64,000 nucleotides of DNA from Seison nebaliae. Taxonomy: Eukaryota. The position numbers and the translations under genes are program-made. A model generated the notes under the pieces. The model worked only from the letters and a program-made list of their open reading frames with translations. It had not been told where the DNA came from and did not search any database. Positions 2,245 to 63,427 of the stretch are shown here, in pieces; position 1 is the first letter of the stretch; each line of letters opens with the position of its first letter. The DNA is taken from positions 1 to 64,000 of the forward strand of contig JALJEE010002570.1 in NCBI GenBank assembly GCA_023231475.1, in the 5' to 3' direction.

Positions 2245-2289
<45 letters not shown>

Positions 2290-16876: not shown

Positions 16877-18412
16877 ATGGATGAGACGAATGAAAAGAAT
16901 CTATTAAATTCACCCAATGTTCAAGTAAAGAATGAACGAACAATATTTAACACGGGATACAACGACGATGATGACGGTGGTGATGTAGGAAAGAATTGGA
17001 AGATCATTGCTTATATCGCCAAAATTATCATTTTCGTTTCTTCCATCATAACGATTGTTTTCATTTCAATTCCATTGGAATATACTAACTTCTTTGAAGA
17101 TTTCTGCTACCACACTTATTGTGCTTGCGTCGCTTTCATTTAGCATAGGAAAATTCTTCGAAAGAAGAAGTAAATCTGGGGAAATTGAAGATAATAATGA
17201 AGCGGGTTCTCATCTTTCTTTCAAATTCCATCATTATTCCTGATAGATATTCATGATCTGGCTTTCACACTCTCAAATCTTGCCTTACCATTGGGTTCCT
17301 TATTGGTCGTTCTGGGCATTGCAGGAATTCTTCAATGTTTTCGACGATTCTGGTGGCCGATATTCGCCGTTTTCAATTTCTTCTTTTAATTTTGAAATTT
17401 TCACTTTTCCATTTCAAATTTCTCTAGTATATCGTCGTATCGATAGCAGTGATTATTAATACGATTATACTGATTATTGTCGTTCCCAAAAGAATTGATC
17501 ATACCATCTATTCCAAACAATGTAAAGTTAATTTTTCTTTCATTATTTCAATTCATTTCCACGAAACATTTCTTTCTCATATTCTGAGAAAGTTTATTTT
17601 GGAACGAAAATCTAATGAGAAAATTTTCGGTGTTTTTCCATTTATCTTCGGGAGTTGATGTACAAAAAAATTCTAATTTCACCTTATTCTTTTGTTTTAT
17701 GAAAAAAAAATGACATGAACTGTCCCGTTTATCTCTAAAATCCAATTCCCTTCCAATATGTGTTCAATCCCCATATCTCTCTCTTTCTCTAGCACTTGGC
17801 ATCATTTTTGGCAAAGGTAACTAAACTTTTTTCTTCTATTAATTCTCAAATAGAATTTTCCTCTCAAACTTCTTTTCACCATTCTTCAATTTAAATTGAA
17901 TTAGAATTTGAACTCTTCTTTTCACCAAATTGTCATTAAAATTCATTTTATCTCAATTCTCTCTCTCTCAGCGTTTTCTGAGTGACAACCATTTCTTTTC
18001 ATTGTAATTCCCCTTCTTTTCTGCTTCTACTGATATTCGGGCAGCTGATGTTATAATTTGTTTAGTGTTCCCCCGTTCTGGTGTTTTCGAGTGCACAAAT
18101 ATTAAATAGTTTGACTAATTTCCTCTTTATCTCCGACATTTTTTTCTGAGCACCAATTTGCATTGAAAGAAAACTTAAAAAATTTCATTTGTATAATTTC
18201 AGTTATGTCGCTATGCAATTACGGCGCTATTGGAACCGATAAGAGAATTTGGATTCGTTCTAATTACAATAGAAGTTTACAATAATTTTATTTCGTTCTT
18301 CATAATCACTTTCTGATCAACGTAGTTGTTACTCTTAATATTAGCAATTTTGATCGCAGTAAAAATTATAAAACAAAAGAATTTAAATTGCGAATCAATT
18401 TTGGGTGCTTAA
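16877..18412 (+). CDS. Four-transmembrane, tetraspanin-like protein (spliced model)
   Basis: Introns 17057-17099, ~17206-17247, ~17369-17427, 17527-18202 (join uncertain) and 18275-18325 give four hydrophobic helices, including LGSLLVVLGIAGIL and FGFVLITIELLLLILAILIAV. No CCG motif seen. Confidence 0.5.
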
Positions 18413-18517
18413 TTCATTTGTCTAACATTCATTTGTGGCCTTAACAATGATACGACAATAATTATTTTTATAAACAACCATTCCAACTAGTATAACGAAA
18501 ACGATTGAAAAGAAAAT

Positions 18518-19017
18518 TCATTTTTTTACCGCAAAAATATTTTCTTGAGCCTGTAAACGCTTCAACTTACCAGACATTTTTATTCCATGACGTGCACCTT
18601 TGTGACATGTTCTTGATGAACAATATTTGAATTGCTCTCTATATTCTGTTTGAGACAAGTGTCTTTGCTTTCTCTGCTCCGTTAAAGTTTTATTAACAGT
18701 TTGCTCAATCTCTTCATCATCACTCGAATTAGATGATGATGATGATGACGATTCATTATCTTTCTTGAAATATTTTAATAAAATTTTCATCATTTCACAA
18801 AATTAACTTGTTTCAAATTCTTGAGAATGTCATTACATTGATTCAGCCACCATCCTTCAAGTCGATTTGTTTGTCGACTTTTATTGTAACCGAATCCATT
18901 TTGATCGAATTTATTCGAAGACTTAACTGTCTTTATATTACCTTGTCGATCCTTTCCCAAACCGTCTCCTAATTCCCAACCGAATTTCTTCAAATACTTC
19001 TCCCCAAGTTTCCCCAT
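18518..19017 (-). CDS. GPATCH4: Short G-patch domain protein 4 (about 151 aa); one intron 18764-18807
   Basis: N-terminal G-patch GEKYLKKFGWELGDGLGKDRQG, a WW motif, and CSSRTCHKGARHGIKMSGKLKRLQAQE matching the recalled GPATCH4 RTAHKAAR...KLARLEAQE motif. Confidence 0.85.
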
Positions 19018-19261
19018 TTCACATGGATGGACAACTAGATGAAAGTCTAAGACGTTAGAAAGAGCAAACAAACGATAAAAATTAAAGAGAATATTTGAAA
19101 ATAAAATTGAAGATGATCATTTGATAAATAAAGAAGAAATTATTTGAATCTTAATCTTTTTTTCCTATAATTTTCGTTGATTAATATTTAATAAGGAAAT
19201 TAAAAGAATTTCTTAATTTTCGTTCAGAAATATCAACAGCGAAAATAAAATTTATAGAAAG

Positions 19262-20947
19262 ATGGAGGATTTGTTCGATGTAATGAATTCTGTCTGTTTG
19301 TCTTCTCCATATCCATTGTCAATACAAAAATTTCTGGGTTTATTATATTTTTCCATTTCTCCAATTTATGTTACAACTATTTGCAGAAGACTACAAAAAT
19401 TTGACAGGAAGTAAGTTAAATGTTGAGAAAGTTGGATTTGGATGTCTCAAAGATGCGATTCTCGCCAATAAAAAATTGGCAGCTACCCAACAGTTCGATT
19501 ATTCCATTTTCACTTCACTTCATTTAATTTAGCGATAATACGGTTTATGTGACCAATCTACGAGACGATAATTCGAAGGCGATTGAAGATTTGGTCTCCA
19601 AACAGAATAATGTTATATTGTTGCTGGAAATTTCTTTCAAATTAATTTAATTAATTTTCAATTTTAGCTTAAAAAAAAGAAGTCCGCACCGCCAGTCACC
19701 GTTAGTCATTTATTCAGTTTGAGAATATGTCTTAAATCGAGTGTTGGTAGAAAGCGTTTGTAAGGAAAAATGCAATGAAAGGAAGTGTTTTAGGACAGCC
19801 TTCCCCCGACATGCAATTGAAGACTTGTAACGTTTGTAATATTTCGTTTGCAAGCAATGATCTCCAAAATCATCTCCGTTCTGCTAAACACAAGGAATTA
19901 GAAAATAAAGCGAAAGAGAAAAAAATTACAACGTCTTCTTCTCGTTCGACATCTTCTCGTCGACGTGGTAGAAAATCATTACCATCTCATTTGGATCCAT
20001 ATTCTGGTGCCAATTATGATAATCGAAATGCTTATGAAATTAAACAAGAGAAAGTTGATGTGAGATTGAGCAGTAGAACTGGAATTAGTGGAATAGACGG
20101 TGCTCCTTATATACCAAATTCTTTTAATAATAATAATAATAATAATTACAAATTTGACACAAATTATCAGGAAAATAACGAGAAAATTAACAATAAAACT
20201 GATACTGAGAATGGAGAGAACAACAAATTAGAAAACGAATATAATCCAACAAATACAACTACTTTAACAACTGCTCAGACAACTCCATCACCAACGTCTC
20301 CTTTTGTTGCCACGACAACGACAATAGACGGTAATGTGAATAAAAATGATCAATCAATTAAGACGACAGGTCAGTCAGCTCGTAAAACCTCTTCAGAAGG
20401 ATTATGGAGTTCTGAGAATTATAATCGAATAACTTTCCAAGATATGATCAATATGGATCCAAAGCAGTTACTGGAAGAAGCAACCGAGGTATTCGAAAAA
20501 AGGTTGAAATTTGCCGAAATGCAAGATCGAAATCATGATGAAGAGATAGAACGAGAGAATTTGAGAGGTAGGCGTCAATCAGTTGATAAGTCAAATTTTG
20601 CATCACCTCAATCTTACACGAAATCGAAAAAATTGGAAATAGCAAAAAGTGAAGAAGAGTGGGAATTGTTCATGTCGAAACATTCCAAATCGTCCAATCG
20701 CAGTACTCGCACTGACTTTGTCGAGAAGCAGAATGAGGAAGATGAAAATGATCCAGTAATTAGCACGAACTTTTCATTTGAAAATATTAGCAATAATAAA
20801 TTGGGTAAGAAGATCACAGTCAATTTAGCTACAGGTGCCAATGAAATGAAGATCGTCTTTGTGTTCAAAGACGTTAAACAATTGGATATTGAGACAGTCA
20901 ATCTCATTAAGAACAAGAATGTGGTTGTTATTCCTTTATCTGAATAA
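19262..20947 (+). CDS. LOTUS (OST-HTH) domain + U1/matrin-type C2H2 zinc-finger protein (spliced model)
   Basis: Introns 19338-19386, 19493-19532, 19612-19667 and 19701-19750 join four small exons in frame to ORF 19775. The N-terminus SVCLSSPYPLSIQKFLEDYKNLTGSKLNVEKVGFGCLKDAI...SKAIEDLVSKQ resembles the TDRD5/TDRD7 extended LOTUS. Zinc finger: CNVCNISFASNDLQNHLRSAKH. Confidence 0.7.
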
Positions 20948-21454
20948 GTCCATCCGTAAGATCCATTTATCGGTATAGACGTTGCAATTCCATTAAAATG
21001 GTAAAGTTTAATGATAGAAAATCATTTAAATGATTTATACATTTTTCTACTGTTAATTCCGCTAATTTAATTTAAACTTTATTTTTTAAAATTTCATAAA
21101 ACATTTCTTTTTAAATGTCTATTTTCCAGTTTCATCATGATAAACATCACACTTTCATTATTTATTCATTCACTTCATTTTCATTTCTTTCACCTTTTCT
21201 TGAAGTAATTTACAATTTATATTAGTTTCTAATTTGAATGTTTTACAGATTATTATGATCTGATGATTAAACATCAATTAATCATTCCGACATGGTTATT
21301 AGTCATTGGCAGTGGAACTTTAATGATTTGTTATAAACATTTTCTTTCAAACGATGATAAAGTAGAACTTAATAATCATTTTCGACTATGAATAATTATT
21401 TACAACTTTAAAGATTATGTGAAGATTTTTGAAAATTAAAAAAAAATATAAATT

Positions 21455-21830
21455 TTGACAAGAGAAATGGAGGAAGAAAATAGAAGAGAGACTAAAGTAA
21501 ATTGGGATGAAGTTGTCCAAGTGAATAACTGTCCAATTATCGTAAGGATAGCATATGATTATGATAAGAGAAAGATGAGTAGGAGATGTGATTATGGATT
21601 CCAATTATATTTGGAGAATAAACAAGTAATTGCTACTAATTGTGGATAAACAATTTTAGATTATGTCGATGATCTTTTTGTGTTTGTTAAATAATAATGT
21701 ATGTTTCTCCTGGTCTCACCGATTGAGGAGGAGTAGGAGAAACGATTAAGTGAAATTGAGAAGGAATGTGAAGATATCTTGTGAAAGTGCAATTTAACAC
21801 CAATACGAAATTAGATTGATCTTGATCGAC
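21455..21830 (+). pseudogene. Possible fossil reverse-transcriptase fragment
   Basis: Reading through the stop at 21647 gives TILDYVDDLFVFVK (YxDD-like), followed by stop-interrupted charged helix-like sequence. Only a single motif. Confidence 0.25.
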
Positions 21831-24800: not shown

Positions 24801-24896
24801 AAAAAGACAAATAAAAAGTGAGGGAAACATTCGAAATATTGTTAGATAATGAAAGTTCTACTTCATAAACATTAATGTGGTAACTGTTGGAGGAGA

Positions 24897-27800
24897 ATGG
24901 AGTCGATGACTGATTTATCGTTCGTCATGAAGCGTCACCACTTTTACGAGGGAGGAATGAATCGTGGAGAGAATGATGTGGGAAACCGTCGACGGAATCG
25001 TACTCGAGAGAAATGGAAAACGAATGAAGCACATGTAGATAAAAAACATAATTCGGGTATATTCCCCAAAATTTTCCGTTTCTATAATCCATCAAACTCC
25101 ATTCCACAACGACGGGAAACGAAAAATTCATTTAAGTCTTCAATGTCGTCGTTGTTGATGCATGGGAAGTGGTGTGACGACGACGACGACGACGAAGATG
25201 ATATTCGTGAGAGAAAAACAAAACCGAAAAATGGAAGGGAACGAGAAGGAAAACGAATGTTTTGTATTGAAGAAGAAATCATCAATAATGAGAATTATGA
25301 TAATTGTGGAAATGTTGATGATGATGATAATGATATCAATGTACATCAGAAGAGGAGACAAAACAATCAGAATAATGAAGAAATCGTCGGTAACGCGAGA
25401 AAGAAGAATATTGACGAAGGTCATTCAAATAGTCGACCTTATTGTCATTTACAATATTCAACGTCATATCTCGCTGCTATTGGGAATCGTGTAGATCGAA
25501 ATAAATGGAAAGAAAGAAAACGTGGAGGTATGTTAAATTTTATTAATCAAAAGTCAAACAAACGACGTGAACGACAAGAAGAACGAAAGACTTTGTCGAC
25601 TGACAAACAGTTGAATGGAAATCGAAGAAAACGAGAGAAAAGTGGTGAGGAGAAATTTAAAGGAAAATGGAAAATAGAAGAAATCGATTGGAAGAGAAAT
25701 GAGAGAAAACAATCACTTTCACCAAAAAAATCAATAAATGATATTTGGATATATTCTAATTCAATTCGCAATTTCAATAATAATAATAATAATAATAATA
25801 AGAGAACTATATTACCAATAATACAACAACAACATCAACGAAGATTTGAAGAAATTGATGAGACTTTCAATTCATCGACAACAACAACAACAACAAAAAA
25901 GATTAAAGAGAAAAGAAAGAATAGAAGAATTGAAGAAGAATTGTTGACAGACACTTCACCAAATTCAACAAATTCTGATGATATTGAAACGTATATCTTG
26001 TCGTCGTGTCCAAATCTTTTCGTCCATGAGAACGATTTAAATCGTGGACAACACAAGATTAATGGTCGAATTGATGCCATTGTAACGGAGACGAACGAGA
26101 GAAGAGGAAGAAGAGATGAAATGAAGAAAGAAAAATTGAATCGGAATGAAGGACAAGTGACGAGAGTATATAAGCCAATAATTCCTAAGGGAACAATTGA
26201 TGAGTATTCAAATAAAATGAATTTAAATCATTCTCTCACCACTACCAACACTAACAACATCAACAATAATAATAATAATAATAATTATATTTATTATAAA
26301 TATAAAACAAATTATAATAATTGTCATTTTAATATCAACAATAACAACAACAACAACAATAATAATAGTGGTGTTGATAAGAATAAAGATATTTATAATG
26401 CGAATAATTTTAATAATAAAAATTTGACTGAGAGATTCTTCGTCACATGTACATCAATTACAACGACGACAACGACGACAACAACAACAGTCACGACATT
26501 ATCATCATCAACTTTCTTTAATGACACCAACATCAATACATCCAGTACAATTACAATAACAACAGCGAATAATTTGTTGAGGAACGACAACAACAATAAC
26601 AACAATAATAATAATAATACAAATAATTTGAATTTTATTGAGAATTCGAATAATTTATCGAGTAAAAAGAAATATTATTATTTCTGTTCAATCGATGAGA
26701 ATAAGAAAAATTTGAAGAGAATTGTTGAACATCAGCCAAATCGACGAGAATTATCTCGCCCAATTCATACCAACGAAAATTATCATGATTATAACGACGA
26801 CGACGATGACGATGATGATGATGAGAAGAAGAGAAGAGGAAATCATTTAGTGGAGAATGATTTGATCAAATTTAATTTTAATCCGAATCCAATTCAAATT
26901 TCTAATGACAATTTCCTCCCAATTTATTATCATCGAGAAGAGAAACAGAATCATCAGATTTCTACTTCAAACGTTAATCTCATTTATCAGAATCATAAAG
27001 AACCGTATTCTCAATACATTAATCATAATGGTAATCAATTAAATACTCATCAATTCAAATCATCTGATTTCATTGTTCATTCCACCAATTCTATTCCTCA
27101 TTCACAATCACCTTCCACTCAATTCACAAGTTCATCTCTTTCGACATCTCAAAATCGTGACGTGACGACGGACGGAGGACGACGTGATTCTCAACAATCC
27201 GAATGTCTACCCGACAATTGTTTGAATCCATTACGATTGAATTATAAGAAATATTATTCCGTAAAGAATACATCGTCTGATTCAAAAAAGAGAAAATTTT
27301 CGAAAAAAAATAAAGAGAACGTTCAAATTCAATTGATGAAGGGCAGTAATGGTGGAGAATTGATGAAAGATCGACCTACAAATCGATTTCGCCCTAGATC
27401 TCCCAAGTCCTTATTCAATCACAAACGTTTCAGTATCAGTTCCACTAATATTCATCAGACGGGCAATTATCCAGATAAATCGATCGCCAAAGCTGATATT
27501 CTCAAATTCTCCTCATCACCTTCACCATCTTCACTCTCAACTTCTCCCTCTCAATCTCCACCATATCCTTCATGTTCAATACCTAACGACATGGAGATGA
27601 TGAGAGAACCAAAATTCAATAAGATTATAAATAATTCCGGTCATTTACCTGTCACCAGCATCTCTTATAAGCAAATGAACGAGAATATCGTTTATGAAGC
27701 ATCACCAAAATATTCGAATCATCCAAATTCGGTGGTACATCCGCCTTCATCCAACGTCCTCTCAACAAATAAAACGAATAAGGAGACGAGAAAGAAATCG

Positions 27801-39819: not shown

Positions 39820-41738
39820 ATGGGACGAGCTACTCTAAGAGATATCACTCTGACTTATTCAAACAATTTTCGAAGACCATCGTTCGTTGCTTATCGAGTA
39901 ACGAAGAAAGAGAAATTGAAGGCAACAGCACCTTCGATCTTCAGCAAATTTCTCGACTTCTACTCTAAATATCTACCGCAAATTTACATTCTCTATTATA
40001 TTTGTGTTGTCTTTCATACGTTTTTACTTTTGAGTATTTGCTTCAAACCTGAAAGTTTCTTCTTCAAACAATCAACTCCAAAGTATTTGTTGAAGAGTTA
40101 CAAGTACATGTTCATCACCAAATCAATTTACTTTATCCTTTTCGATATCTTATTTGGAATATATTTGTTACATCTCATACTCTTATTACCAGTGCGATAT
40201 CATATCATTACTCAATATCCATATGATCTATTCGATATCATCTATATCATTTTTCATGTCTCTACTCTATTCTATGGTGGACCGGGGTATTTACAATATC
40301 AAACGTTGGTCTGGTGTCTAAAACCTTTCCGTCTTATAGAAATACTTTCAAAAATGCCTCGATTAAATGTTTAGAACATTTCATTTAATGGACTATTATT
40401 CTTTCTTACATACGACTAATTTATAGAAATTAATAGAAGCTGTCTTTATGACTATTCGCGGCCCATTACTTTACACAGTCATGCTACTTTTCGAGGTTGT
40501 CTTCCTATTTGCTGTATTGGCATTCTTCTTCTTTGGAAATGATATTCCCAATGCCAAATTGGATAAAGAAGTTGCTCTCACAAACAATTATGTAACTGTT
40601 AACGAAAGTGCTGATGTCGACGAATTACTTCGTGATAAGAATTTCGGATCTTTTCGCTTCAACATCGCTACATTGCTGACATTCGTGTTTGTTAACATTT
40701 TTGACATTTTATTCCAATTCATATTTTTATAAATAAACTTCAAATGTACTTGACATAGCAAGACGGATGGTTCGAATTACAACGTCAATGGGATCTTCTC
40801 AATATCATGAAAGGCTCTCGCTATTTTATAGCCACATATATTATAGTAGCTCATTTTATTTTTACTAGCGTAATTGTGGCTATAATCATCTCGAATGTTC
40901 GAAAAGTGAACAGGTCGCTAGAGGTTTGTTGTTGTTTACGAGAATAATATTTGTTCATTTTCTTAAAATCTAATCATCATTGAAAATAGATTGAGGAAGA
41001 GAATAAAAATGCGATAATAAAAAAAATGAAACAGGATTTTACTCTTTCCAAATATAGAGGTACTATCTTCCATAATACGATAAAACATTATAAGGTTCTT
41101 CCACTCACATAGAGACACTTTCATTCTTCTTTATGTTTATGGAGAGAAAATTTATTCTTTCTTATTCTAACGCTTCTCCGGAAGTGAAAGAACGATCGAT
41201 TGGGAAAACTCGACAAATAATTTTCGAACATTTCCTTAATTGTTTTAAAATAATTAATTTTCTTCCTGTCATCCCGTGAATGGAACAACAAACTTATTAA
41301 CACTCTATTTTTTTATGAATTGACGAAGTGACGTCTCTGATTCAAAGGAATCATTTAACTATTTTACTTCCTTTTCTTCCAATCACTATTATAATTAAAC
41401 AATTCGCAAACAGTTAGGAATGAAAGGAATGAACGAACGTCTCTTGGAAACGGGGAAGAAATTGAAGAATGATATTTTTATTATTCCCAATTCGTTAATG
41501 ATTAATCCGATTTGGATCGAAACGTTGTTAGTTACTCTTAGACACACTCAAGAATTAAATCACAGGTATCTTATTTTATCGCTCACAATATAATTAATTC
41601 AAACATTTTATATATAGAATATTGAACATACATTCAGAAATATGCTCTAACTTATGTACTTACTATGAGTTGCATCATGAAAAATTAAAGGATCCCAAAT
41701 GGAAGAACTTCTTTAAAAATCATTACGATAGAAAATAA
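39820..41738 (+). CDS. CATSPER3: CatSper3-like sperm cation channel alpha subunit (about 451 aa, 6 exons)
   Basis: Single 6TM ion-transport domain with S4 LKPFRLIEILSKMPRL and pore IATLLTFVFQDGWFELQRQW..SRYF. C-terminal NPIWIETLLVTL...ILNIHSEI resembles the CatSper3 tail. Introns: 40369-40426, 40691-40758, 40924-40989, 41095-41413, 41566-41617. Confidence 0.7.
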
Positions 41739-42338
41739 GACGGAAATAAACTGAATAAATATATATAAAACTTTTTCCTGATATGTTTATACGTTAGAAA
41801 AATATATATGTTAAATATATGTTGTTTAAAATAAATAAAAAAATAATTATATATATCTTTAAAATTTCTTGATATTTTTCATTTATGAATTTTTAAAAAA
41901 AAATTTAAAAAGACTTTTTGTCTCATCTTAAAACACAATTTTATCTGGATTTGATATTTTTATAGCTTTTCAGACATATAGAGATACTTTCAGATGTAAA
42001 TACTGTAGCACATAAAGAAACTGATAAGATATCATACGATAAAATTCACAGTTAAAAATGAAAAATTAAATGAACGAAACACGAAACGCGGATAAGTTAT
42101 ATTTTGTATTTTATCTAAAAATTCGTTTACTTATTGTTGTAACGTGATTGCGTTAGATTTTGATATTTTAAACAATTTTAATTTTTTTGAAAACCTTATA
42201 AAAGGACATTGATGTCAATTTAATGTTACAATTAAAGCTTGAGGTACATGAATAGATAATGATAAGTTATCGAATATAATAAATTCAAATTAGAATATTG
42301 AGCTCGATGATTTCTAAGTTCTGTCGGGGAAAACAATT

Positions 42339-45300
42339 ATGTTCATGAAATGTTGGTCAACAATTTGGGTGGTGTGCATTCTGTTTGCATCAATTAATTG
42401 TGATGATTTTGATGATGACAATTTCATAAGTTGCGTTGGATTTATTCGATCGTCTGATGGAACGATAAAGATTCCTTATGAAACATTGAAAGTTCAATTG
42501 AAGTTATTAAATGGTGAAGTGAGAACAGAAGTGAATGTTGCACCAAATAATGGAGATTACATGATTCCTATTTACGAGAAAATTAAAAGAAAATATATTT
42601 TGGAAGTAGTGGCCCCGCGTGGTTGGTCGTTCAAGCAGAAGAGTTATCAGATCGAAATCGATGGGAAAACGGACAAATGTTCGAAAGGGGAAAATATCGA
42701 TTTTGAATTTGTTGGATTTGGTCTTTCTGGTTTGATAAATGGAGTAAAAAATATCAATAATGATATTCGTATAAAATTATTTCGATGGAATGATAATGTA
42801 TTAATTGAAGAAATGAAATTGACTGATGGTAATGAATATACATTCAACAACATTCTCCCTAATCAGTACTACGTCACATTCTCCTCCGATTTTTATCATT
42901 TGAAAAAAGTTTCATTTTTATTTTATTTTCAAATTTTTTAATTAAAAAAAATTTTCAGAAAAATATTTCTGTAACGATATCAAAGAATAATTGGAAAGCT
43001 GATCCAAATGAAATTATTGGAATCGGATTCAATTTGAAGATTCGATGTGACATAAAATGGAATTTCCAGTTCAATTTAATTGTTCATTCGTTGACGAAAG
43101 AAGAATGTCTCTCGAATGATGGCAAATTTGGAGATGATAAGAAATGTAAAAAGTCATTTAATTGTGAGAATGATTCGAATGTTTGGAAATTGAAAAAATA
43201 TTCGATAAATAAAAAATTATCTTATTCCATTGAAAATGTCCATTCGACAATTCTTGAAATGAAATCAAATATTATTCATTTAACAGAACTTAATCAGAAT
43301 ATGATTATCGATGTTTGTCATTCTTATCAATTCTTTATATTTGCTAATCATTTTTCTTTTAGATGAAATTAAATGAAATGAATTTTCATCTGAAATTACA
43401 TTATCTTGTAATGGATGAAATGATTATTGAACATTCAGATATTCTCGTCAATAAACAAGTTAAAACTAAAACTGACGTTTCCGGACATGTCAATCTCTCT
43501 CAATTGAAATTCAACGATATTATTGAATTGTCAAATGAAAATTTCATATTCCGAAAAATCGAATTAAATCAGGTAGAATTGGAGAAAATTATTTCAATGA
43601 AAGACAAATCTTCATTTTCTGTTCGAGCGTCTGGTATAAAAATCTGTTCGATGATCAAATGGAAACCAAACTCGATTAACAACCGTTTAATTCAGGGAAA
43701 TGATTTACAATTGAAATTATTGAAAAAGAAAAAATTATTAAATGAAATTAATATGAAAAAAGGAAGGACAGATAATTATTATGAGAATTGTCTAATTATC
43801 GGAGTGAAAGTGTTGAATGAGAATTTAGAAATAATTTTGAAAACGAAAAATTCAGATGATTTATCATTTTATCTTTCACCATCGAATTATATTATCAACA
43901 AAGAAACGATTGGAAATTATTTGAAAAATAAGAAAATTTTCCAATTCTATCAAATTGAACATTCCATCAAACTGCAAATGAATTGTTTATCAAAATGTGG
44001 AAATGAAAAATTGAAATTAATGAATAATGAAAAGGAGATAATTCCGATGAAATCAATAAAGAAATCAGAAAAGTTGATTGACTATCGAATTGATAATTTA
44101 TTGCCAGGAATTTATTCGTTAGAGACGAGTGAAATGAATAAAGCGATTTGTTGGGAGATTAAAAAAGAATATGAATCGATAAATTTATTGAAATATCAGA
44201 AGAATATGGAATTGGAATTGTCACCAATCAAAGAGAAAGGATTCACTCTTCAACTTCTTTCGAAATTATCGGGAATGAAAATAATTGTAAAAAAGATGAA
44301 TGAGGAAAAAGAAAGGAAAGAGGAAATTATTGATAATTTTGAATTGGAGCAAAATAAGAAGAAATTCCATTGTATTTATTCAACAAGTTAATTTTCAAAT
44401 TTTTTTTCTTAGAATCTTTTCTATCGTTTGTGTAGAGCCAGTGATTGTTGAAATTGAGAATAATTATTCAAATCATCTTATTCAAGAGAAATGGATAATT
44501 GATGAGAAATTCGATGAAGAGATAATTATCGATATTGATGAATATTATGCAGAATTCTCTTTGAAACTTCAACTATCTGACAATTTGATAAAGAATAAAG
44601 GATTAACCAGTAATAAATTATTTAATATGATTAATGATAACGATTTGATAACAACGAAATTAAACGGCAAATTAATTCGACCAACAAACAAACGACAAAC
44701 TGAAAAAAATACAATTTTTATGATATATTCAATTTATTCGAAGGAATCGATATTGAATGAATTAATAGTATATTCGAATAATTTCATTTTACCAGGAAAA
44801 AGTCCGGATGAATATGTCAAATCATTCAAACTCAATATCAATCAAATCGAACAATTTTTTATCGAATTATTTCCAATGACAATAATTCGACTTGAAAGTG
44901 ATCCCATCATTATGGATCTGAAAGGAAAAGTACAATTGGTACGTGAAAAAAAGAAGAGAGAAATAAAATTAATAACATCATTTCCATCATCCGGAATTAT
45001 GGAATGGAAAGAGATAGTAGAGAAGAATGATGAGATTCATGTGAATGTCTATCACAAAAATTATTTGTTCGAATTGACAAAATGTTCAAACGAGAAATTA
45101 CCAAAATCTGGAGATTATTTATTTTATAATTTATACTGTGAAAAGATTATCGGATTTAAACGATCTGGTATTATTATTACTCTGTTATATGAAGATAAAC
45201 ATCCCATATCTGGAGTGACTGTTAATTTAGTTGCCGATGATGAGAAACGTCGAAATGAGAAAAGTGACAATAGTGGAATTGTTTCATTTTCCGATTTAAC

Positions 45301-46234
45301 TGTACAATCTTATTTCATGAGAGTTCTATTGCGAGAACATGATTTTGAACCGTCGTCTAAATTAATTAAATTAAATTCAGAAGGCGAACAAATAACTTTA
45401 ACGATAATTGGAAAACGAACTGCTTTCTCTTTAAGTGGTCATGTAATTTCTGTATTAAATAATCAAACATCACCAAATGAGAAAGTTCGATGTCAATTAA
45501 TCGAATGTGATATAACAAATGAACGATTAAAGAAATTATTGGATATATCAACCATATATGACGAGAACGTCATCGGTCAACAACAACAATTTGATGTAAC
45601 ATCAGAAAATGGAAATTTCCGTTTTAGATCACTCCTTCCAAATTGTCTATATGAAATTCAACGTCTTTTAAATAATCAACCAACTGGATTGAAACAACGT
45701 CATTTGATATCGAATGAAGATATCGAACAAATTCCATTATTAATTGGACGTCGTTATCTTCCATCGGATGATGATGATGAGAATAATAAATTAGAATTAT
45801 CTATATCATTCTTAATGAAAGATGATGTTCTTGGACAGAAATTATTACCAAAACATTTACTCCTTCAATGTATCATTAAACTTTATGATGGAAATGATAA
45901 TCGATTAATCTTAACCGAATCATTATCCACATCATGGATTCTCCTTCAAGTCAATCGACAATATTTAAAAAAGAAACTTTTAGTCAAATTAGAAATCCTT
46001 TCACATCAAACCACAATAGACGATAGTGTCCAAATGGATTCATCTCGAAATTATTTGACAATGATGATCGACGAACATCCCATTATCGATGAAATGATTC
46101 AATCAGAGAAAATATCAACTGGAATCATGTTGGATATATTGTCCTTACAATCATTCGTTACTGTACTTGTTGTTACTGTTCTTTTAATACTTCCTCATAT
46201 CGTTTATAAGAAATTCTTATGGAGACGAAGATAA
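42339..46234 (+). CDS. NOMO: Nodal modulator / BOS complex subunit NOMO (about 1248 aa, 4 exons)
   Basis: Signal peptide, CVGFIR, APNNGDYMIPIY, PRGWSF, DGKTDKCSKGENIDFEFVGFGLSG, LREHDFEPS, GKRTAFSLSG, GNFRFRSLLPNCLY and a C-terminal TM. Introns 42909-42958, 43313-43362 and 44387-44435 restore one frame. Confidence 0.92.
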
Positions 46235-46413
46235 ATATTCTGAATTGAAATTAAATGTAAAAAAAAATCATTTAAACATTTTTAAATTATTTCTTTCTTT
46301 ATTCGTTTGTCCCTAAACAAAAACTGTTTTTCTATTATTTTCTTCTCGTTATTTATAAATGTAACTTTCTCTACCGATTTTTTGGTTAAATAAAAATTGT
46401 AAAATTTTGTGAC

Positions 46414-48336
46414 ATGTCCTTAATTAATTTGTTGAATCTGTTGAATTCTTATCGAAACAGTTAAATATTTTGTTTCGTTTATTTAAAAATTTCTATTCTC
46501 TAAAATTGAAAGGAATCAATTGCAAATTGGAGATTTTTTATAAGAATTCCACATTGGATCTGAAGGATTCTTATGGAAGATCTCGTCAAATTTCCATCAT
46601 CGATAAATTTACGGTTTCTCTCATAATTTAAATTTAAAAAACATTATTAAATTTAGAATGAAAATGAATTTTTAAAATTATTAATAAATTATATTGTGAT
46701 ATTCGTGTCGTATCATCAGAAAACTTCAGTTACCATTTACCATGAAAATGAAAAAATTTTCGATACAGACGATATTGTTACACATAATTCGATGAAAGAT
46801 AATTTATATCAAAATCTTTTTGCCTTGCACGAAAGAAGTTGTCTAACATGTCTTCCAATACAATTGAAAGATGTTAAAGGATTTGTTTATTTCGTGAAAT
46901 GTAAAGAAGAATGTCTACTGGTCAACCGGAACACATGGAATAATAAAATGGAATATTTTTTCATGTTAAATGGTAAATTGATCTTATTATACGATTCTCT
47001 CCTATCTAATAATTTGATACAATTAAAATTGGATATGGAAGAACATTTTCCACGTTTTTCAATTTTCATTTAATTATTTAGAATTTTCTTTAGTTTTCTT
47101 CTTTTACGATTTCCATACGAAACAACGTCGATATCATTCAAATCAATTGAGAATTATTTTATTGAAGGTGAATGAGATGGTGAAGGAATTAGTTGGAATA
47201 GAAAAGAAAATTAAAACGAAAATTCTCATAACACATCCAAGAGATTTCATACGTGTTAGATATGACGATTCAAAGAAATTGGATATTCGAAGTAATTTCC
47301 CAATAATACCCGTAAAACGGATTGATTTGTTTAAGATGAAAGTTAAATTTTACCATAATTAATATTACAACAATATTTACAATTAATCTTTTCTCTAAAG
47401 TTTATTGCTCAAATATTCCACAAATTTCTCATGAACATGATACTAGATGAGAAGACGAACAATATTTCTTTAGTTTTTCTCGATCAACATGCAATTCATG
47501 AAAGAATGAGACTCGAATATTTTAATAGTTAAATTTTGAGATTTATCCAATCTTTTATTAACATCTAATGTGAATTGCATTAACTTGTTTAGATCGTTCC
47601 AATGAATTGGTGTGGAAAATAATTCAATTATCACATCCAATCTTCTTCCCCAACATCTTTTTCACACATTCATTCGTTCAAGTGCGAAAATTGTTTAAAG
47701 AAGCTCGTTAGATTCAATTTTTTTCTTTTAATTTTTTTTTTTAATTTATCATTTTAAAAGATATCGAAATTGATATTGATTCCGAATCAATTTATGTGAA
47801 TTCAATACCAAAAGTTTTGATGGATAATTGCAATAAGAAAGATATATTATATGGATTACTTACTAATATTTCAATAGTATATTCTTTTTTAGAAGTTGTC
47901 ATTACTCAATACGTATATTCTTTTATCATATATACTTTTAAGAAATCGAATCAATTTGAAAGAGATAATATTCTGAATGAATTTCTTATCAAAGAGTCGT
48001 GTAAAAGTTTTAATAAATTTTGAGAAGTTCTAAATATTGGAAAATGTTCAGAAGCAGTTAAATTCGGTGATAAGTTATGCTTATCAGCCATTATCTTCTT
48101 ATTAATATACGCGAGACAGACGAAACATATATTCTCCTGCTGTCATGGACGTCCGTCAACAATTCAATATTCACTCTTCCGCCTACCGACGTTAAAAGAA
48201 AAGGTTTCCTTATTATTCATCACGAATATTACCGGAAATGAGAATTTTTTAGAGATTGCGGTCACCACAAAAACTGATTGAATTTTTCAAACGTTTTTCT
48301 ATTGGCAACAAGTGTCATGATGAAGAGATGAATTAA
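46414..48336 (+). CDS. MLH3: MutL homolog MLH3, miniature form (about 488 aa, ~10 exons)
   Basis: LVFLDQHAIHERMRLEYF (DQHA-x2-E-x4-E endonuclease motif), SCKKAVKFGDKL and FSCCHGRPS. Introns: 46460-46512, 46614-46656, 47054-47093, 47342-47400, 47528-47592, 47707-47760, 47895-47942 (optional, in frame), 48007-48051, 48204-48252. Confidence 0.8.
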
Positions 48337-51548: not shown

Positions 51549-54500
51549 ATGGATATTCAAATCGATGAATCTGGTTTTGATCCCGATACTTATATGCGAC
51601 ATCTCATAAAAGTTCTGACTACTATTTATTTCAAAAGATAATCAACTTAAAAATTTAGACGAAAAAATTACCAGAGTTAATCGATCGAGAAAGTGAATTA
51701 TGTAAGGAAATAAAGAACATTGGAAGTGATATGCAAACACTCGTTTATGAAAATTACAATAAATTTATAACAGCCACTGATACTATTCAACAAGTTATTA
51801 GATTCATGATGGAAATTTGTAATTATTTTAAAAGATGAAAACTGAAATTGATAAAATGTCCGATGAAGTCATCAAACTTCGATCGACGATGGATGATGTT
51901 TCTGAATATAATACAAAAATCAGTTCATCGTTGAAAAATCGACGAGATGAGATGTCTCGTGTGGTGGATAAACATAATTTATTGAAAAAAGTTTTTCCAT
52001 TTTTCTTTTCTTCCCAAATTATTTAACGAGAAATTTAAAAAGTTGAAATTCTTCTCTCATTTACCGAATCAACTTCAAGAATTTATCGATGAGAAGAATT
52101 ATGAGATGGCTATCAATTGTTATGAAACTGCAAATAAGAATATCGAACAAGCGACATCGAAGAAATCGTTTAAAACGATTCGTGGAAAATGTGACGAGAA
52201 AATGGAGAGAATTAAAAATAATTTATTTGAACAATTTGATAATCTTCAGGTTTTTTTTTAAATTTATTTTCCTTCAAAAATTTCTTTTCTGTTCCAAAAT
52301 TTCTTTCTCTTATTTCATTTTAGACAAGTGGGAAAGAATTGAGCGAAGTTGTTGGTTTATTGCAGAAGTTGAAGGTGGAAGATAAAATTATCGTTTTGAA
52401 ATTTTTGGAATTGTTTCACATTTCTTTTGGAATTATCTTTTTTGTTTTATTCTATTCTATTGGAAAAAGTCTAGATAAAAAATGTGAAGAAAATTTGAAT
52501 TTAATAAAATCTCGAATTCGAAAATCAAACGAAGTTGTTGATGTTGGGAGAGATGAAGTGATGGTTCCAAGAGTGGAACATTCATCTCATGTGAATGAAC
52601 AACAGAAACAATTGAAAAGTGGAAAGAAGAGATTTGAGAGAATTTGTCAAAATTCTAAAAGGAAATCGAAAAAGACGAATATTCTTCCATCGTTATCTGA
52701 TTCATCATCCAAATCGACAACAGAAGATGAAGAAGAAATATTGAATAAGAAAAATCCATTTTATGATGAGAATGAATTAAAGAGGAGAAAAGAAGAAAAG
52801 AAGAGAATTCGACGAGAAAGAAAACAATCGAATGAGAAGAAATTAAAGATGAGAGAAGTTCTCATCGATAGTGATGAGGAAGATGAAATGGATGAGACGT
52901 CATTCATCGAATATTCCTGCAATTTATTTGTTTATGATTTCACATTATTCATATCTGTTTATCGTGATCGATTCGTGAAACATGAAGATGATTGGAAGGA
53001 GAATGAAGAATTGTTGAAAGAAAAAATTCTCTTTCATTTTTCACAATTCTTTGACATAATCCTTTCCAATATGAAAAATGAAGTTTTCTTAATTATTTCC
53101 TTTCATCTAATGGAAATTTGTTTAAAGATTTTCAATAATCATCGTACGATCGATATCGATGAACGAATTCGTGGAATTGATCGATTATATCGACGATTGA
53201 TTGCAGCAGACAAGATCATTCGATCAAAAGAAATTATCGAGTTTAAACAAACAATTTCCACTTTCTCCTCTAACTTCTATTTAGTCGATGTATATGTTGT
53301 TGTTTAATTGGTTATACAAATTTGGTGGATATGTTTGGAAAATATTTGGAAAGATCATTTATAAGTTCAAATATTTTTCTTATTTTTTAAAGTTAAAGAC
53401 TGAAATGTTCGTTGTAGATTTGATTCTTGTGCTACATGAGAAGAGTCTTCTCATTAATGAGAAGAATGAGAAGAATATAAAATGGATGGAAATCATTGAA
53501 AGTGAATTAAATAAATTTTTGGGAGAAGTTGAGAATGTGTTGAGATTAATGTGTTTGAATGAAATGATTCTTTTGGAACAAGTTCCCATATTGACCAATT
53601 TGATATTGGAGATAATAATCGAACAACGATTATTTGATGTTCTTCATCAATTCATTTTGGATTTTATTAAAGTTTTCGGTTTTATTATGAAAAAAATTTA
53701 TGAGATAAAAATGTTTTTTCTGACAGAAATATTTGTTTGGTGATAAAAGTCCATCGAATTCTTTCTTATTATTAGCAACGTCGAAATTATGTGAAATGAT
53801 AGGAAAATATTATATTTGTCCAATAGTTAAATTTTTTAGCGATAATTTTGAAAATTAAAATTTTTTGGAAATTTTATTAGTATCATATTTATTCTGAATT
53901 ACACGACGAATATGTTAAGGAAGAGATTGGTTCGAATAAAACTGAAAGTATGAAATGTATTCAATATCTCTTATCATTACGAAAAGATTCGGTGAGTCGT
54001 TATAAGAATAATGAATTTATTGACGATGAATTGATGAAATTTGAAAAATTGTCAAAAGTTCAAATTTTATAAATTTTATAATTTTTATAATTTGCTACAG
54101 TTTATCGTTAATCAATATATTCGTTTGACTGGTTATCAATTGGGAACAATGATTGAGAAGAGTACGGAAGCGAGAGATTGGCGTCATGCTCATGAACCAC
54201 GTCAAGTACGAAGTGTTATTCGTCGATTAACAGATGAATTAGTATTGATGGAATCAGATGTAGCACAATTCTTTCCCCCAAAGATTCAACATGATAAAGG
54301 TATCAGCAGTGAGTCATCATCTCACAATCAATTATATATGAAAAATTTTTCTAGTGAAAAAATTAAAAGTCCCTCATCTAATCGAACATCATCGAAATAT
54401 GAAAATGTAAATTATTATCGACAAAATCTTCATGTGACAGCCATTCCTACAACATTACCATCTGCTCGATTGTTTAGTGAACAAATAAAAATTTTCGATA

Positions 54501-54796
54501 ATGAAATTGGTGAGAAAGGCAAATGTGTGAAGAGGGAAGATATCACGAACGGTGTAATAAAAATCATGTTGAAAACATTCATTGAAGCGGTTCGATTGTG
54601 CACATTTAACCAATTCGGATTACAACAAATGCAAGTTGATGCCAATTATTTATTGACTAATCTTTGGACTTATGTTCTCGATGAGACAATGTTACAAGTT
54701 CTCATTGATCAATTGATCAATAGTACGGTGGTGAGATGTCAAGAGAGAAACCCGAAATTAATGGATCCAACAATTGTTGAATCACTTTGCGAATAA
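51549..54796 (+). CDS. VPS51: GARP/EARP complex subunit VPS51 (about 893 aa, ~12 exons)
   Basis: FDPDTY, DMQTLVYENYNKFITATDTI, RDWRHAHEPRQVRSV and LKTFIEAVRLCTFNQFGLQQMQVD. Introns: 51612-51658, 51794-51834, 51991-52042, 52250-52323, 52413-52469, 53083-53127, 53241-53284, 53365-53417, 53672-53726, 53826-53880, 54058-54100. Confidence 0.93.
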
Positions 54797-55020: not shown

Positions 55021-55727
55021 ATGTCTCACAATGAGAGTGATAAGAATGTGTCAGATATCGACAATGCTACAGATAAAAGCGATGATGAAAAGAGCGATGT
55101 GACATCCGTTAAAATCGAAAAACCGTCGAAGAAAACTAAAAAAGGAAAACCATCTAAAATTTCGAAGTTAATTCAATTAGTTCAGAAATTTAAAAAATTT
55201 GTCGTTTTAGGAAGAAAGATGAGAAACCATTTGGTAACATCGTTTCATGGATAAGTTTCGCTATCCTAATTTTGTCCACTACAGCAATTATCTTTATATT
55301 ATTTATGGTAATTCGGACAATGTGTTAAAATTTCTTTAGTTTTTTTAATTTAATTCTAATTCTATTCTTAAGGTTTACGAAAAGGTTTCCGTAATTCAAT
55401 TAATGGTGATGGCAGAGCAATGTCGGGAAAATTTAGCATGTTATCTATGGAAATGACTCCAGGTAATACTTGTTACAATCAAGCATGTATCCAATTGAAT
55501 AAAATAATAAATGAAGATTGCTTCGGAGAAATGAAACCAATTTCCGTTAATTTAATATCAATTTTATTTTTATTAAATTCTGTTTTAATTCTCTCTTTTA
55601 GAATTGTAATGATGTGACGAAAAGTTGGTTAAGAAATCTGGTAGGAAAATGGAAGAACTCTCCTCGAAGTTCAATTTGTTCATCGAAATTATTGAAAGCG
55701 GGAAAGAAATGGCAGAAGACTTGTTGA
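55021..55727 (+). CDS. Small type II membrane protein with Cys-containing ectodomain (about 185 aa)
   Basis: Introns 55167-55210, 55324-55372 and 55546-55601 give one frame: charged N-terminus, TM IVSWISFAILILSTTAIIFILFMVI, then TCYNQACIQLNKIINEDC...NCNDV. Confidence 0.55.
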
Positions 55728-55939
55728 CTGCAGAAGAATCGAAAATAATTGACGAAAATTACTTCGTAATTTTAAAGAACTTAATTCATTATAATCAAAA
55801 GAAAGAAAGATTTGTTTGATAATATGGACTGAAAATGAATGAGATAAGAAGTTAAAGTCAGATTGAAAAGTTTCTAAATTTTTATTTACAATAAGTGAAG
55901 AATTCGCAAACGAAAAAAAGGATATAAAATTGGTTAGAA

Positions 55940-56876
55940 TTAGAAAAACGTGTGAACATAAATAGAAAGAGAAAAAAGCCAAGCACAATTCAAGTAAGGA
56001 AGTAACGGTCTGTTTGAATTATTATGAAAATATGGAGCACGAAATGCTGAACGAGAAATACTCTCCTTCTCCTCCTTCTTAAGTATTTTCTTTTCCTTTG
56101 AGTTTTGTCGATTTCTTTGTAAATATTTATTTACTGCACGTCTTCGATCCAAATTATATCGATCGTTCAATAATTCTTCAAGAATAAAAGATTATTGATT
56201 TCATTAGGGGGGAGAAAGATTGAATAAAGAAAAACCTTTGAATGTCAAGTTGTTGTTAGTCGTCTTCTTCTGGGGAAGAACATAAAGAACAATGTTTTTC
56301 TTTTTGGATGTTGGATTAACAGTAATTTGACATTGATAGATTCCACTGTCACGTAAACGAACATCAGATATTCTTAAGTTCCATGTTTCACTCACGATAT
56401 CTTCGACACTTGTCCTTTTCGTCAATTTAATCCGACGACGTTGATGATGTTGTTGTTGTTGAGTTACATTACTAACTTTATTTTGAGCACTACTATAAAT
56501 GATTTATAATTAAATAAATAATATTGAGAATAATATTAATAATAGACAACTTTATGCGATGTAGAACTGACATTCTCCAATCGTAATTAAACTGATTCAT
56601 TCCAACAGTTAATGCATTAGGAAATTGACTATTAAATTCTTTCTTTATCCAAATTATCTAAGAAAGAAAAGAAAATTTAATCGAATAAAGTTAAAAACAT
56701 AAATTGCCAACATGCGTTTCAGGTAACAGATTCTTCACTTCACAAGGTAATATTACCTCTTCTCCGACGATTGCATGAATTGTATGATTAATTTTCGTTG
56801 AAACGAATTCCGGATATACATCATTTGATTGACCATAATCAAATAATAAAAGAACGATATTTATAATGAAGAACAT
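55940..56876 (-). CDS. Single Ig-domain cell-surface protein, Dpr/zwei-Ig/lachesin-like (about 254 aa)
   Basis: Signal peptide, PEF...VGEEVILPCEVKNL, IIWIK, ALTVG and WNLRISDVRLRDSGIYQCQI, hydrophobic C-terminus. Introns: 56658-56711, 56493-56550, 56176-56235. Confidence 0.8.
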
Positions 56877-59800: not shown

Positions 59801-61508
59801 ATGCTAATTAAGGAGTGTGTATTGGTGTTGAGAATTATTGGATCCGAATGATTTGCGCGGTTCCAAACAGGAAGAATTCCGAGAAGAAAAGTAGAAAAAA
59901 CGAAAAATATTCTCATTGTTCATCGCTCAATTGAGAATGGGTTTTTAGTCTTTAGATTTTACAAGTATTTACGATTATTATACGATTATTCACATCAATT
60001 CCACTTCTTCATTTGACTGTTGACATAATTCTTAATTCATTCCTTCATCCATCGTCAAACTTCAATCATCATATATGATTCATACTTCAAATCTATTTTG
60101 ATCAATTCATATCTGACTTGATCCTTAACAATATTCGTCGTTGTCGTCGTCGTTGTCAAACACTTGATGTTCAACTGCCTCGATTATTCGTTTAGTGCAC
60201 CATCTTATTTGCTCTTTCATTCAACGAACAATATAATCCTGATTCGTAATGACAAAGAGAAATAGAAAGAAAGAAAACTTCATAAACATCCAGTAGGAGA
60301 ATGAACAATTTATTTATAGTTCGAGTAGTGTGAGCAAGGCTTTACCGAACGGAAGTAGAAGAATATGTAGTAGAAATAGGACTTGCTGTTTAATCGACGC
60401 AATCTGGAAAGATTACGTTATGACGTGAAAAGGAAGCAAGAATAAATTGCAGCAACAGCAGCTTTTATCGAAAATTATTTTCTTCTCTTTGTTGTTTATG
60501 AAATGACGAAGAGATTTATACTTGGAAATTTCGAATATGTTCTTGTCTGAAATTTATATAGTGAACTGAATATATTTGAGAAAACATTAGGAAAATATGA
60601 ATTTCTTTCAAAGATTTAGTTCTTCATGAAATGGAAGGAAGATATAGCAATCGGAGGTTCCATTGAGAAAGCGGAAAAAAGGAGAAAGGTAAAAAGTTAT
60701 AAGATTTTCTTTTTAACGAACTTCCTCCATAACTCCTTTTCCGGATATTGGAACGGACATTAGAAAACGTGAGTGGTAATGAGATTCAGGATAGAGAGTA
60801 GCGTCATTTAGAGAATAAGTGAATCAATTCTGAATGACATTAACTAAATTTTATGACCGGCTAACAAGTGATCGTGATAAAATTGAAATGAATAACTCAC
60901 AAACTTCTCATAATTATCCTTCCTCCAATGGATTGTTTTCGTTTCGAATGAAGTTTCGAGAACTCAAAATGAAGATAATGATAGACATTCATTAATATCA
61001 ACATTAATATCGATATTTCATTTTAGTAAAAATCATTCAATTTATAAATAAGAAGAAATGAAGTTAATCGACGAAGTTCTAGGAAGAAGTGTCGAAAAAG
61101 AAGAGAATATACATGGATAATTGAAAATCCACGGTTACATAAATGAATGATATCACAATTACAATCAGATGGGTTAAAATGTCCATTATTGAATAATCGA
61201 AAACAAGTGCATCAATAATGATGGTTTTATTAATAAGTCTCATATATTTCCCACTGAATCTATTATGATCATTTGGAAAGAATAGTGAAATGAGAAGAAG
61301 AAGAATGGATATGATAGTGGACAAAAGAGGTTATTGTAAATTCAATTGTATAAGTACAATCAATTCATTTGATTGTACTGTACTGTATTGTTTGTAGTAG
61401 ATGGCGATTGCACTCTACTAGTCGTCTATCCATCTAGTCGTCAATGTTTGTAAGATGATGAAAGAATGAATGGTCTGTGCAAATGTTTAATAGAGACACT
61501 TAAGAGAT

Positions 61509-63427
61509 TCATTTCGCCTTTATCTGATTTAATAAAGCTTCATAACGATGTTCATCATAATAATTCTGCTTAGAGAGATAGTTCTCTGGTCGCGAGGTTT
61601 TCAATCCCTTACTAATGAATGATTGTTTGACATAAACCGCAGCAATAGTAATGCCGATTAATAAGCCGACACCAATAAATCCACACACACTCGCCAATAT
61701 CAACGAGGAGAGCCATCTCTTCTTCGTATCAATTTCACAATAGATACCAGTGAAGGGAGGCGGGCAATTGCATTGGAATGAATCGATTCCATCAAGACAT
61801 GTTCCACCATTCTTACACGGTTCTGATACACATTCGTTAATATTGATATCACACAACACTCCGGCATATCCTAAAAATATTTGATATGAATAAAAAGAAA
61901 TAAAGATCAATAAAAGAGTTCTTCCTTAATCCTCCACTATTATGTGGCTGATGTCTAATTTAAAGTGAAGAATAATATTTTGGGATATAAAATTTTCTTA
62001 AAAAAAGGAGAAGTTCATTTATGTGTTCCTGAGAAATAGAAATGAGAATATTAATGAAAATTCATTAATTACAATTTCTCATTCGGCTAATGAGAGGGGA
62101 AGATGAAGAAGGAAGGAATGAATGAATGAATGAATGAATGAACAATTCAAATAAAAACAATGAAAATTTTAGTGGAAGTTTGGTAGAATTATGGTTAATG
62201 ATATAATTTGATCAATATATGATAAATAATCGTTTCGATTATCATTCACTTCCTCATCTGTTTGTTGAATTAACAATTCCTTTTGGCAATGAATATAAAC
62301 GAATAATATTACGAACCTGGTAAACATTTACATTTGTAACTTCCTATTTCGTTAATGCATTTTGAACGATCCGTCGGACAATTATTAGTTAAAGTCGTTA
62401 AACATTCATCAACATCATTCTCACAATGTCTTCCAGTCCACGATGGTTGACATGTACACGTATAACTGCCAGCTGTATTTGTGCATGTTCCAGCATTCTG
62501 ACACAGATTCACTTTTACACATTCGTCATAGTCCGTTTCACATGTAACTCCCATCCAGATATTTGGACAGACACATTTGAATGATCCTTCATAATTTGTA
62601 CAACTTCCTATTTTCATTCCATAATGTAAAATTAATTCATAATCGTGATATAAAACAATCAGGATTGTTCTAACCTCCATTCTGACATATGTTTGGTGCA
62701 CATTCATCAAAGTCAACTTCGCAATTCAATCCCGTCCAATATTGTGTACAAGTACAACTATAAGAGCCTGTCGTGTCAGTACAAGTGGCTCCGTGCAAAC
62801 AAGGTCCTCGACCATAATTGTAAGCCGTGCATTCATTCACATTAGTCTGACAATTCTTTCCTGTCCAACCAAGTAGACAAACACAATAATAATCTCCTAA
62901 AGTATTAACACAAGTTCCCGTATTCTGACAAGGATTAGTTAAACATTCGTCGATCTCACTACTACAATCGGCACCAGTATATCCCGATTCACAATTGCAT
63001 CTAAAAGACGATGCCTGATTAACACAAGTGGAATTGTACTTACAATTATGTATGTGGTAATAGCATTCATTCAAATGACTTTCACATCGACGACCAGTAT
63101 AGTTCCTTTTACAACGACAATGATAATTTCCGTCTTCTCGTCGAACACATGTCGCTCCATAAAGACAAGGATTCGATGCACAAGGATCTATTTCTTCATC
63201 GCATATTTGTCCCGTATATCCATTCATACAATTACAGACGTAAGTTCCAATTCTGTTAGAACAAGTGCCAAAAGCTCCACAGATTGTAGTCAAATACGTA
63301 CACTCATTGATATCACTTGCACAGGTGGAACCAGTATAACCCGGTTTACACTGACAAGAATAGCCTCCAACCAATTCGAAACAACTCCCACCATTACTAC
63401 ATGGATTAGCTGAGCATTCAGTACCAT
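61509..63427 (-). CDS. 3' exons of a Notch/fibropellin/crumbs-like EGF-repeat single-pass membrane protein (5' exons not located)
   Basis: Ten EGF repeats, many calcium-binding (DINEC, DVDEC), then TM LILASVCGFIGVGLLIGITIAAVYV and a short tail. Introns 62608-62674 and 61871-62316; upstream acceptor at 63428. Confidence 0.9.
62116..62142. repeat. (GAAT)n microsatellite in EGF-gene intron
   Basis: Six to seven GAAT units. Confidence 0.85.

Follow-up and report, generated by a model that had tools for sequence, protein, structure and literature searches.

Can the 5' splice-site code of an intron-rich animal depart from the standard donor? In animals this code is regarded as almost invariable, because a change in the U1 or U6 RNA hits every intron at once, and the cases of donor change that we found in the literature come from protists, algae, yeasts and a slime mould, most of them with few introns and stricter signals. 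The question is raised by a 64-kb stretch of DNA of about 30% GC (the window, by which we mean the whole stretch analyzed) from Seison nebaliae, a seisonid rotifer that lives on Nebalia and whose genome is compact, at about 46 Mb (PMC8351084). The introns considered here are predicted ones, read from the DNA alone. We found that donors beginning with GTT are near-universal in this window at the DNA level: they open 53 of the 56 introns (about 95%), or 54 of 56 with the second isoform of an MLH3-like gene, and are present in all 11 multi-exon genes. The near-universality claimed by the initial annotation thus stands, while its count of 55 of 56 does not.

Near-fixation of T at the third intron position

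The core of the data is a set of seven genes whose deposited S. nebaliae proteins were mapped letter for letter onto the window, yielding 45 introns. Two open reading frames of the window are 100% identical to the deposited proteins SNEBB_003308 and SNEBB_003303, and a profile search with eight further genes gave deposited proteins for five, one of them with a second isoform. The GT-AG placement was unique for every one of these introns (45/45), with the frame restored on removal. To them we added 11 introns modeled in this analysis in four multi-exon genes for which no protein was retrieved, namely the other three of these eight and the G-patch gene, which was outside that search. GTT is found at 43 of the 45 core donors and GTA at the other two; the extra set contributes ten GTT donors and one doubtful GTA. 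The genes are as follows, a slash marking the exon-intron boundary here and below:

16877..17792, + strand: multi-pass membrane protein gene, our own model; donors 17057, 17206, 17369 and 17527, all GTT; a GTA donor at 17817 is doubtful and may not belong to an intron.
18518..19017, - strand: G-patch gene, from the Pfam G-patch domain and our own model, presumably GPATCH4-like; one intron (18807-18764), GTT.
19262..20947, + strand: C2H2 zinc-finger gene (P0153), deposited protein; donors 19338, 19493, 19612 and 19701, GTT 4/4.
37603..39652, - strand: EOGT (P0002), deposited protein; ten introns with donors 39495, 39348, 39190, 39039, 38786, 38659, 38497, 38333, 38121 and 37930, GTT 10/10.
39820..41738, + strand: ion-channel-domain gene (P0155); GTT at 40369, 40691, 40924 and 41095, GTA at 41566 (CAG/GTATCT), GTT 4/5.
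42339..46234, + strand: NOMO (P0156); donors 42909, 43313 and 44387, GTT 3/3.
46414..48336, + strand: MLH3-like gene (P0154, P0158); nine introns, GTT 9/9 in P0158 and 8/9 in P0154, where GTA at 47877 replaces the GTT at 47895, 18 bases downstream.
51549..54796, + strand: VPS51-like gene (P0001), deposited protein; eleven introns with donors 51612, 51794, 51991, 52250, 52413, 53083, 53241, 53365, 53672, 53826 and 54058, GTT 11/11.
55021..55727, + strand: small membrane-protein gene, our own model; donors 55167, 55324 and 55546, all GTT.
55940..56876, - strand: Ig-domain gene (P0157), deposited protein; donors 56711, 56550 and 56235, GTT 3/3.
61509..63437, - strand: 3' part of an EGF-repeat membrane protein gene, our own model; introns 62674-62608 and 62316-61871, both GTT, whose removal restores the regular EGF cysteine spacing.

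For individual genes, the initial annotation had reported all-GTT donors in EOGT, VPS51, NOMO and MLH3. The ten EOGT hexamers recur here in the same order, and the mapped deposited proteins bear out the VPS51 and NOMO counts; for MLH3 the reported 9/9 is true of isoform P0158 and fails by one donor in P0154. The MLH3-like protein is only 482-488 residues long; motifs of its C-terminal endonuclease domain match yeast Mlh3, and no match was found for its N-terminal part.

Base composition does not account for this pattern. A T follows GT at 0.415 of the 5201 GT sites in the window, and within introns, which are 48% T, the probability of T after T is 0.57. Even against the latter, the highest relevant background, 43 of 45 is significant (p = 6e-9), and the overall frequency of +3T (53/56) is far from the background of about 40% with which the initial annotation had asked that it be compared. 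These figures uphold the earlier claim that T at +3 is nearly fixed beyond composition. Moreover, neither C nor G occurs at +3 in any of the 56 donors, whereas 57 nearby unused GT sites include 16 GTC and 9 GTG.

Independence of the pattern from gene prediction

Because the deposited proteins are themselves predictions, tests without a donor preference were made. They bear on the possibility that the GTT pattern was produced by gene prediction, or holds for this window only, in favor of which it can be said that the proteins are "hypothetical" gene models and that the sample is 56 introns from a single 64-kb window. In the first test a profile hidden Markov model of EOGT, built from 20 homologs (one of them a Seison paralog), was used to score every GT/GC-AG alternative that keeps the frame and lies within 60 bases, 2 to 10 of them per intron, and homology alone selected the GTT site as best at all ten introns. 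A donor-neutral spliced profile aligner, scored on 12 non-Seison rows only, recovered the same ten introns, all GTT; its columns were those in which the Seison protein has a residue, and that protein had also served to find the homologs. We also used a gene finder whose donor score rests on GT only and whose intron background and length prior derive from the introns of EOGT and VPS51. It returned exactly the models of these two genes, yet when forced to build models in four gene-free region/strand sets it placed GTT at just 39 of 81 donors. In weaker regions this finder also called some non-GTT donors, adjoining very short or terminal exons, that are unused in the deposited models. Finally, gap-free alignments to relatives of solved structure run across junctions in NOMO (residue 191), MLH3 (two junctions) and the channel gene (residue 184). 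Together with the recurrence of the pattern in every multi-exon gene, these results make an artefact or local peculiarity very improbable. Contigs from four of seven sequencing runs over 37400-47700 are DNA-like and contain no GT-AG spliced joint, and are uninformative either way.

Anatomy of the introns

The introns of the deposited set are short, 44 of 45 being 40-74 bases long (median 51), and their interiors are composed of 32% A, 48% T, 14% C and 7% G. The second feature that sets them apart lies on the exon side, where A predominates (-4A 25, -3A 28, -2A 30 and -1A 23 of 45, with -1G at 11), as the initial annotation had noted in speaking of A-runs; exons end in AA at 17/45 and in AG at 6/45, giving a pattern of AAA/ rather than CAG/. 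On the intron side +4 and +6 to +9 are at background, and +10T is mildly raised. The earlier statement that positions +4 to +6 have been dropped is accordingly right for +4 and +6. At +5, G occurs in 7 of 45 deposited introns (nominal p = 0.03) and in 9 of 56 overall, the number originally reported; this is slightly above the intronic G background of 6.9% (p = 0.014), so that +5 is weak rather than fully dropped. The acceptor is AG, and its -3 position lacks G but is otherwise near background (T 25, A 11 and C 9 in 45 introns, against C 35/82 in the controls described below). No branch-point motif rose above shuffles, TRAY being present in 32 of 44 short introns where 33.5 are expected. In coding sequence GTT is depleted under synonymous shuffling (z = -7.1), which is uninformative since GTA (z = -11.0) and many other trinucleotides are depleted too.

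Two known donor classes were considered and rejected. Minor U12-type introns carry an RTATCCTT donor, and a GTATCC start is seen in 0/56. Shifted-register donors of the GTTNAGT type, which Roca and Krainer reportedly described in 2009, also start with GTT but have the usual signal displaced one base inward (+6G); here +6G is found at 2/56 donors and GTTNAG at 1/56.

Control loci and the age of the introns

For comparison, we applied the spliced profile aligner to 80 metagenome loci related to EOGT, which are mutually non-independent and were trimmed where longer than 7 kb. Introns were found in 36 of them; of the 88 that were distinct after removal of duplicates, 82 were kept and six, including one GTT, were dropped as doubtful or GC. 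Among the 82, +3 is A in 64, G in 10, T in 5 and C in 3, +5G is present in 50 and -1G in 49. AT bias was rejected as the cause of the Seison pattern, as only 3 of 22 introns carry +3T in those control loci that are AT-rich (GC up to 0.33).

The controls also speak to the origin of the introns. At EOGT residue 224 (phase 1) the Seison intron position is common to 8 distinct control introns, and at residue 427 (phase 2) to 11; these 19 comprise 17 GTR (R being a purine), one GTC and one GTT. In a quick tree the loci sharing these positions cluster with arthropod sequences, those with position 427 with a jellyfish sequence as well; this tree (35 rows, unfinished) identified no control locus as a rotifer. 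A third position, residue 291 (phase 0), is shared with one control locus, where the donor is also GTT. As two positions are exactly shared with animals that mostly use GTR, old introns were converted in place, their donors changing to GTT. The alternative that these are recent transposon-derived insertions (introners) carrying GTT ends could draw on the seven of ten EOGT positions that none of the 36 intron-bearing control loci matches exactly. However, the interiors are unrelated to one another, the best local score being 41 against shuffled maxima of 34-42, and the shared positions just listed argue for ancestral introns; an introner origin is already largely refuted and we regard it as scarcely credible. 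Artefact and introners jointly retain a slight probability.

Several further observations concern these loci. The EOGT introns at 39495 and 39190 sit 1-2 bases off intron positions that are frequent in the EOGT genes of other animals (53 phase 1 versus 53 phase 0, and 123 phase 1 versus about 123-124 phase 0), and intron sliding is possible at both, which lie inside A-runs. GTT donors are also seen in two AT-rich, short-intron control loci: L030 has them at 2/2 introns, both with +5G, and L049 at 1/2, with an AAG acceptor and at a position shared with Seison. A second EOGT-like protein labeled S. nebaliae (P0006), 45% identical to that of the window, is encoded elsewhere in the genome. Low-depth (2-5x) contigs over 38141-47533 that are about 87% identical in exons point to a second, related lineage, with differing intron lengths (for example 94 letters versus 60 near 40694-40755); two lineages have been reported for S. 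nebaliae (PMC8351084). The alignments of these contigs extend 4 to 8 bases into four donors (40691, 47054, 47342 and 47528) before ending; going by alignment end points only, this hints that the related lineage keeps donor starts while the intron interiors diverge.

How the donors may be read

It is likely that one splicing RNA has changed so as to read intron starts differently, and the spliceosome reading these introns is most likely the ordinary major, U2-type one. The initial annotation named several candidate causes and preferred none of them. The donors depart from the GTRAGT consensus expected for standard U1, having +3R at 2/45 and +5G at 7/45. They form 4.07 Watson-Crick pairs with the standard U1 end (as given in PMC3033335) versus 5.95 in controls, with a mean pairing energy of -2.05 kcal/mol versus -6.53. 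Scored this way against nearby decoys, the used donor wins in 12 and loses in 12 of 29 introns, as opposed to 65 wins and 6 losses of 76 for the control donors.

The total lack of +3C and +3G despite available decoys argues for an A partner opposite +3: such a partner would accept only U, whereas an unchanged U6 G44 should accept C at least equally. In the early pairing register +3 faces U1 nucleotide 6, and later it faces U6 G44; the simplest site for such an A would be U1, as in Entamoeba. At -1, the prevalence of A over G (23 and 11 of 45, compared with G 49/82 in controls) is as expected for a U partner. We propose, granting it an even chance, that the donor shift stems from an A opposite +3, predicted at U1 nucleotide 6, with support from U5. 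By this proposal the introns would be recognized chiefly by being short, poor in G and rich in A/U, together with GTT and AG. The changed U1 would pair with +1 to +3 and no longer demand -1G, a loss that would agree with a further change at U1 nucleotide 9, and U5 loop I would hold the exon A-run through its U-run. The U6 ACAGA box would pair weakly with +4 and +5, +5G perhaps helping a minority of sites. In cryo-electron microscopy models the U-run of the U5 loop faces exon A(-2,-3,-4), and U40 faces the last exon base (PMC8283771), and a changed U1 has a precedent in Entamoeba, where it carries ACAAAC matching GUUUGU (bioRxiv 10.1101/2022.06.08.495308).

Several points weigh against this proposal. 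A U1 end changed at nucleotide 6 only discriminates used donors no better than the standard one (area under the curve, AUC, 0.62 versus 0.63; mean -2.5 kcal/mol), and although changes at both 6 and 9 raise the AUC to 0.72 (-2.95 kcal/mol), that fit is circular and the pairing is still far weaker than that of controls with standard U1. Among lineages with odd donors, most have retained a standard U1 (bioRxiv 10.1101/2022.06.08.495308), and the register of U5 is disputed, PMC8283771 arguing for C39 opposite -1, which does not favor -1A. An Rfam search of the window gave no RNA gene match, and no small nuclear RNA was seen. Two deposited introns use GTA (41566 and 47877). Lastly, among the 45 deposited introns +5G is found at 5/12 sites with weak exon ends versus 2/33 with strong ones (p = 0.01), a relation that would be expected of the U5-type donors compared below; it is not replicated in the 11 extra models (0/5 weak, 2/6 strong), the pooled data giving p = 0.11 by Fisher's test and p = 0.013 by a rank test. 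In its fullest form the proposal is a tentative one: U1 would be changed at both 6 and 9 genome-wide, U6 ACAGA pairing would be nearly dispensable, and thousands of ancestral introns in an intron-rich genome would have been converted from CAG/GTRAG to AAA/GTT.

The weak pairing of even the rewired U1 ends, at about -3 kcal/mol, could also suit a scheme in which a standard U1 matters little and +3U is read later, by a U6 with an altered ACAGAGA (A for G44) or through contacts of the PRP8/SF3B2/SNRNP27 type, with U5 loop I picking the site. At this later stage +3 does face U6 G44 (PMC11732430; bioRxiv 10.1101/2022.04.05.487178), and the helix formed at the 5' site makes the dock for the 3' site, whose -3 position is relaxed too in the window; U1-independent splicing is also documented in human extracts (PMC11732430). 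On the other hand, AAG acceptors are not significantly more frequent than in controls (p = 0.09), even Entamoeba has retained the ACAGA box (bioRxiv 10.1101/2022.06.08.495308), and we found no precedent for a purely protein-based readout. We regard such later reading as possible rather than probable.

A third scheme would leave all small nuclear RNAs standard, the bias arising from a wobble of +3U with U6 G44, from AT pressure and from proteins that bind U-rich introns. Proteins of this kind are of the TIA-1/Nam8 type. The interiors, at 48% T and 7% G, and the raised +10T (32/45, nominal p = 0.002) would agree with it, but the signal is confined to a single base, with +4 to +9 at background, G44 should accept the C that is never seen at +3, and the AT-rich control loci do not show the bias. 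We therefore consider this scheme unlikely.

Comparison with other donor systems

The closest likeness is to Entamoeba, which has +3U in nearly all introns and short, AT-rich introns (bioRxiv 10.1101/2022.06.08.495308). It also fixes +4U, +5G and +6U (88-90% GUUUGU) and is intron-poor, whereas in Seison GTTTGT occurs at 2/56, +4 and +6 are at background and the signal has moved to the exon A-run; compared from donors alone, Seison further differs as an animal with intron-rich genes (45 introns in 7 genes). The rewired donor envisaged by the initial annotation thus holds as regards the near-fixed +3U, and its novelty is limited by Entamoeba, the animal form seeming to be unreported. A second likeness is to U5-type (AG//GU) sites, which combine a weak intron side with exon purines able to pair with U5 loop I (PMC11732430). 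In other animals these make up about half of sites, with -1G and mostly +3R; in Seison the bulk of sites is involved, -1A exceeds -1G, +3 is U, and the exon-end AG that defines the class is present at only 6/45. In Saccharomycotina a switch from +4A to +4U accompanied loss of METTL16 and SNRNP27K (PMC10581693, as described in PMC11732430), likewise a genome-wide change of donor preference tied to the machinery; there +4 changed, in intron-poor yeasts, and in Seison there is no preference at +4 and it is +3 that changed.

In a literature search from which subscription papers were largely absent, we came upon no report of a GTT donor in Seison, rotifers or any animal. Donor sequence is not discussed in the available parts of the S. 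nebaliae genome paper (PMC8351084), and its two text supplements contain none of six splicing terms; the GTT donor is likewise absent from the searched parts of a cross-species survey (PMC3033335), a review (PMC3488318) and a lamin paper that mentions Seison (PMC10125929). Passages of a second cross-species survey (PMC10599564) do not mention the donor, "GTT" itself not having been a search term there. The Seison donors thus seem to be a new form of co-evolution between donor and spliceosome, apparently the first in an animal. With a donor that is shorter and weighted toward the exon, an intron-rich animal offers a natural test of what chooses the 5' site, U1 or U5/U6, and of co-evolution between the machinery and thousands of targets. 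If the rewiring is true, its outcome would be the opposite of that in budding yeast, where the intron side is strict and the exon side free. On the practical side, generic splice models weighted toward GTR would mis-annotate this lineage.

Other genes of the window

The window also holds very long uninterrupted open reading frames with poly-Asn/Gln, at 1945-14595 (- strand), 24876-33650 (+) and 34767-37103 (+), which measure 4216, 2924 and 778 codons from stop to stop, while their neighbors carry an intron every 100-200 bases. The 4216-codon frame has no Pfam or PDB match, and the 2924-codon frame encodes a RapGAP domain. A metaxin-like gene at 15736-16674 (+) is also intronless and encodes Tom37 and GST_C domains.

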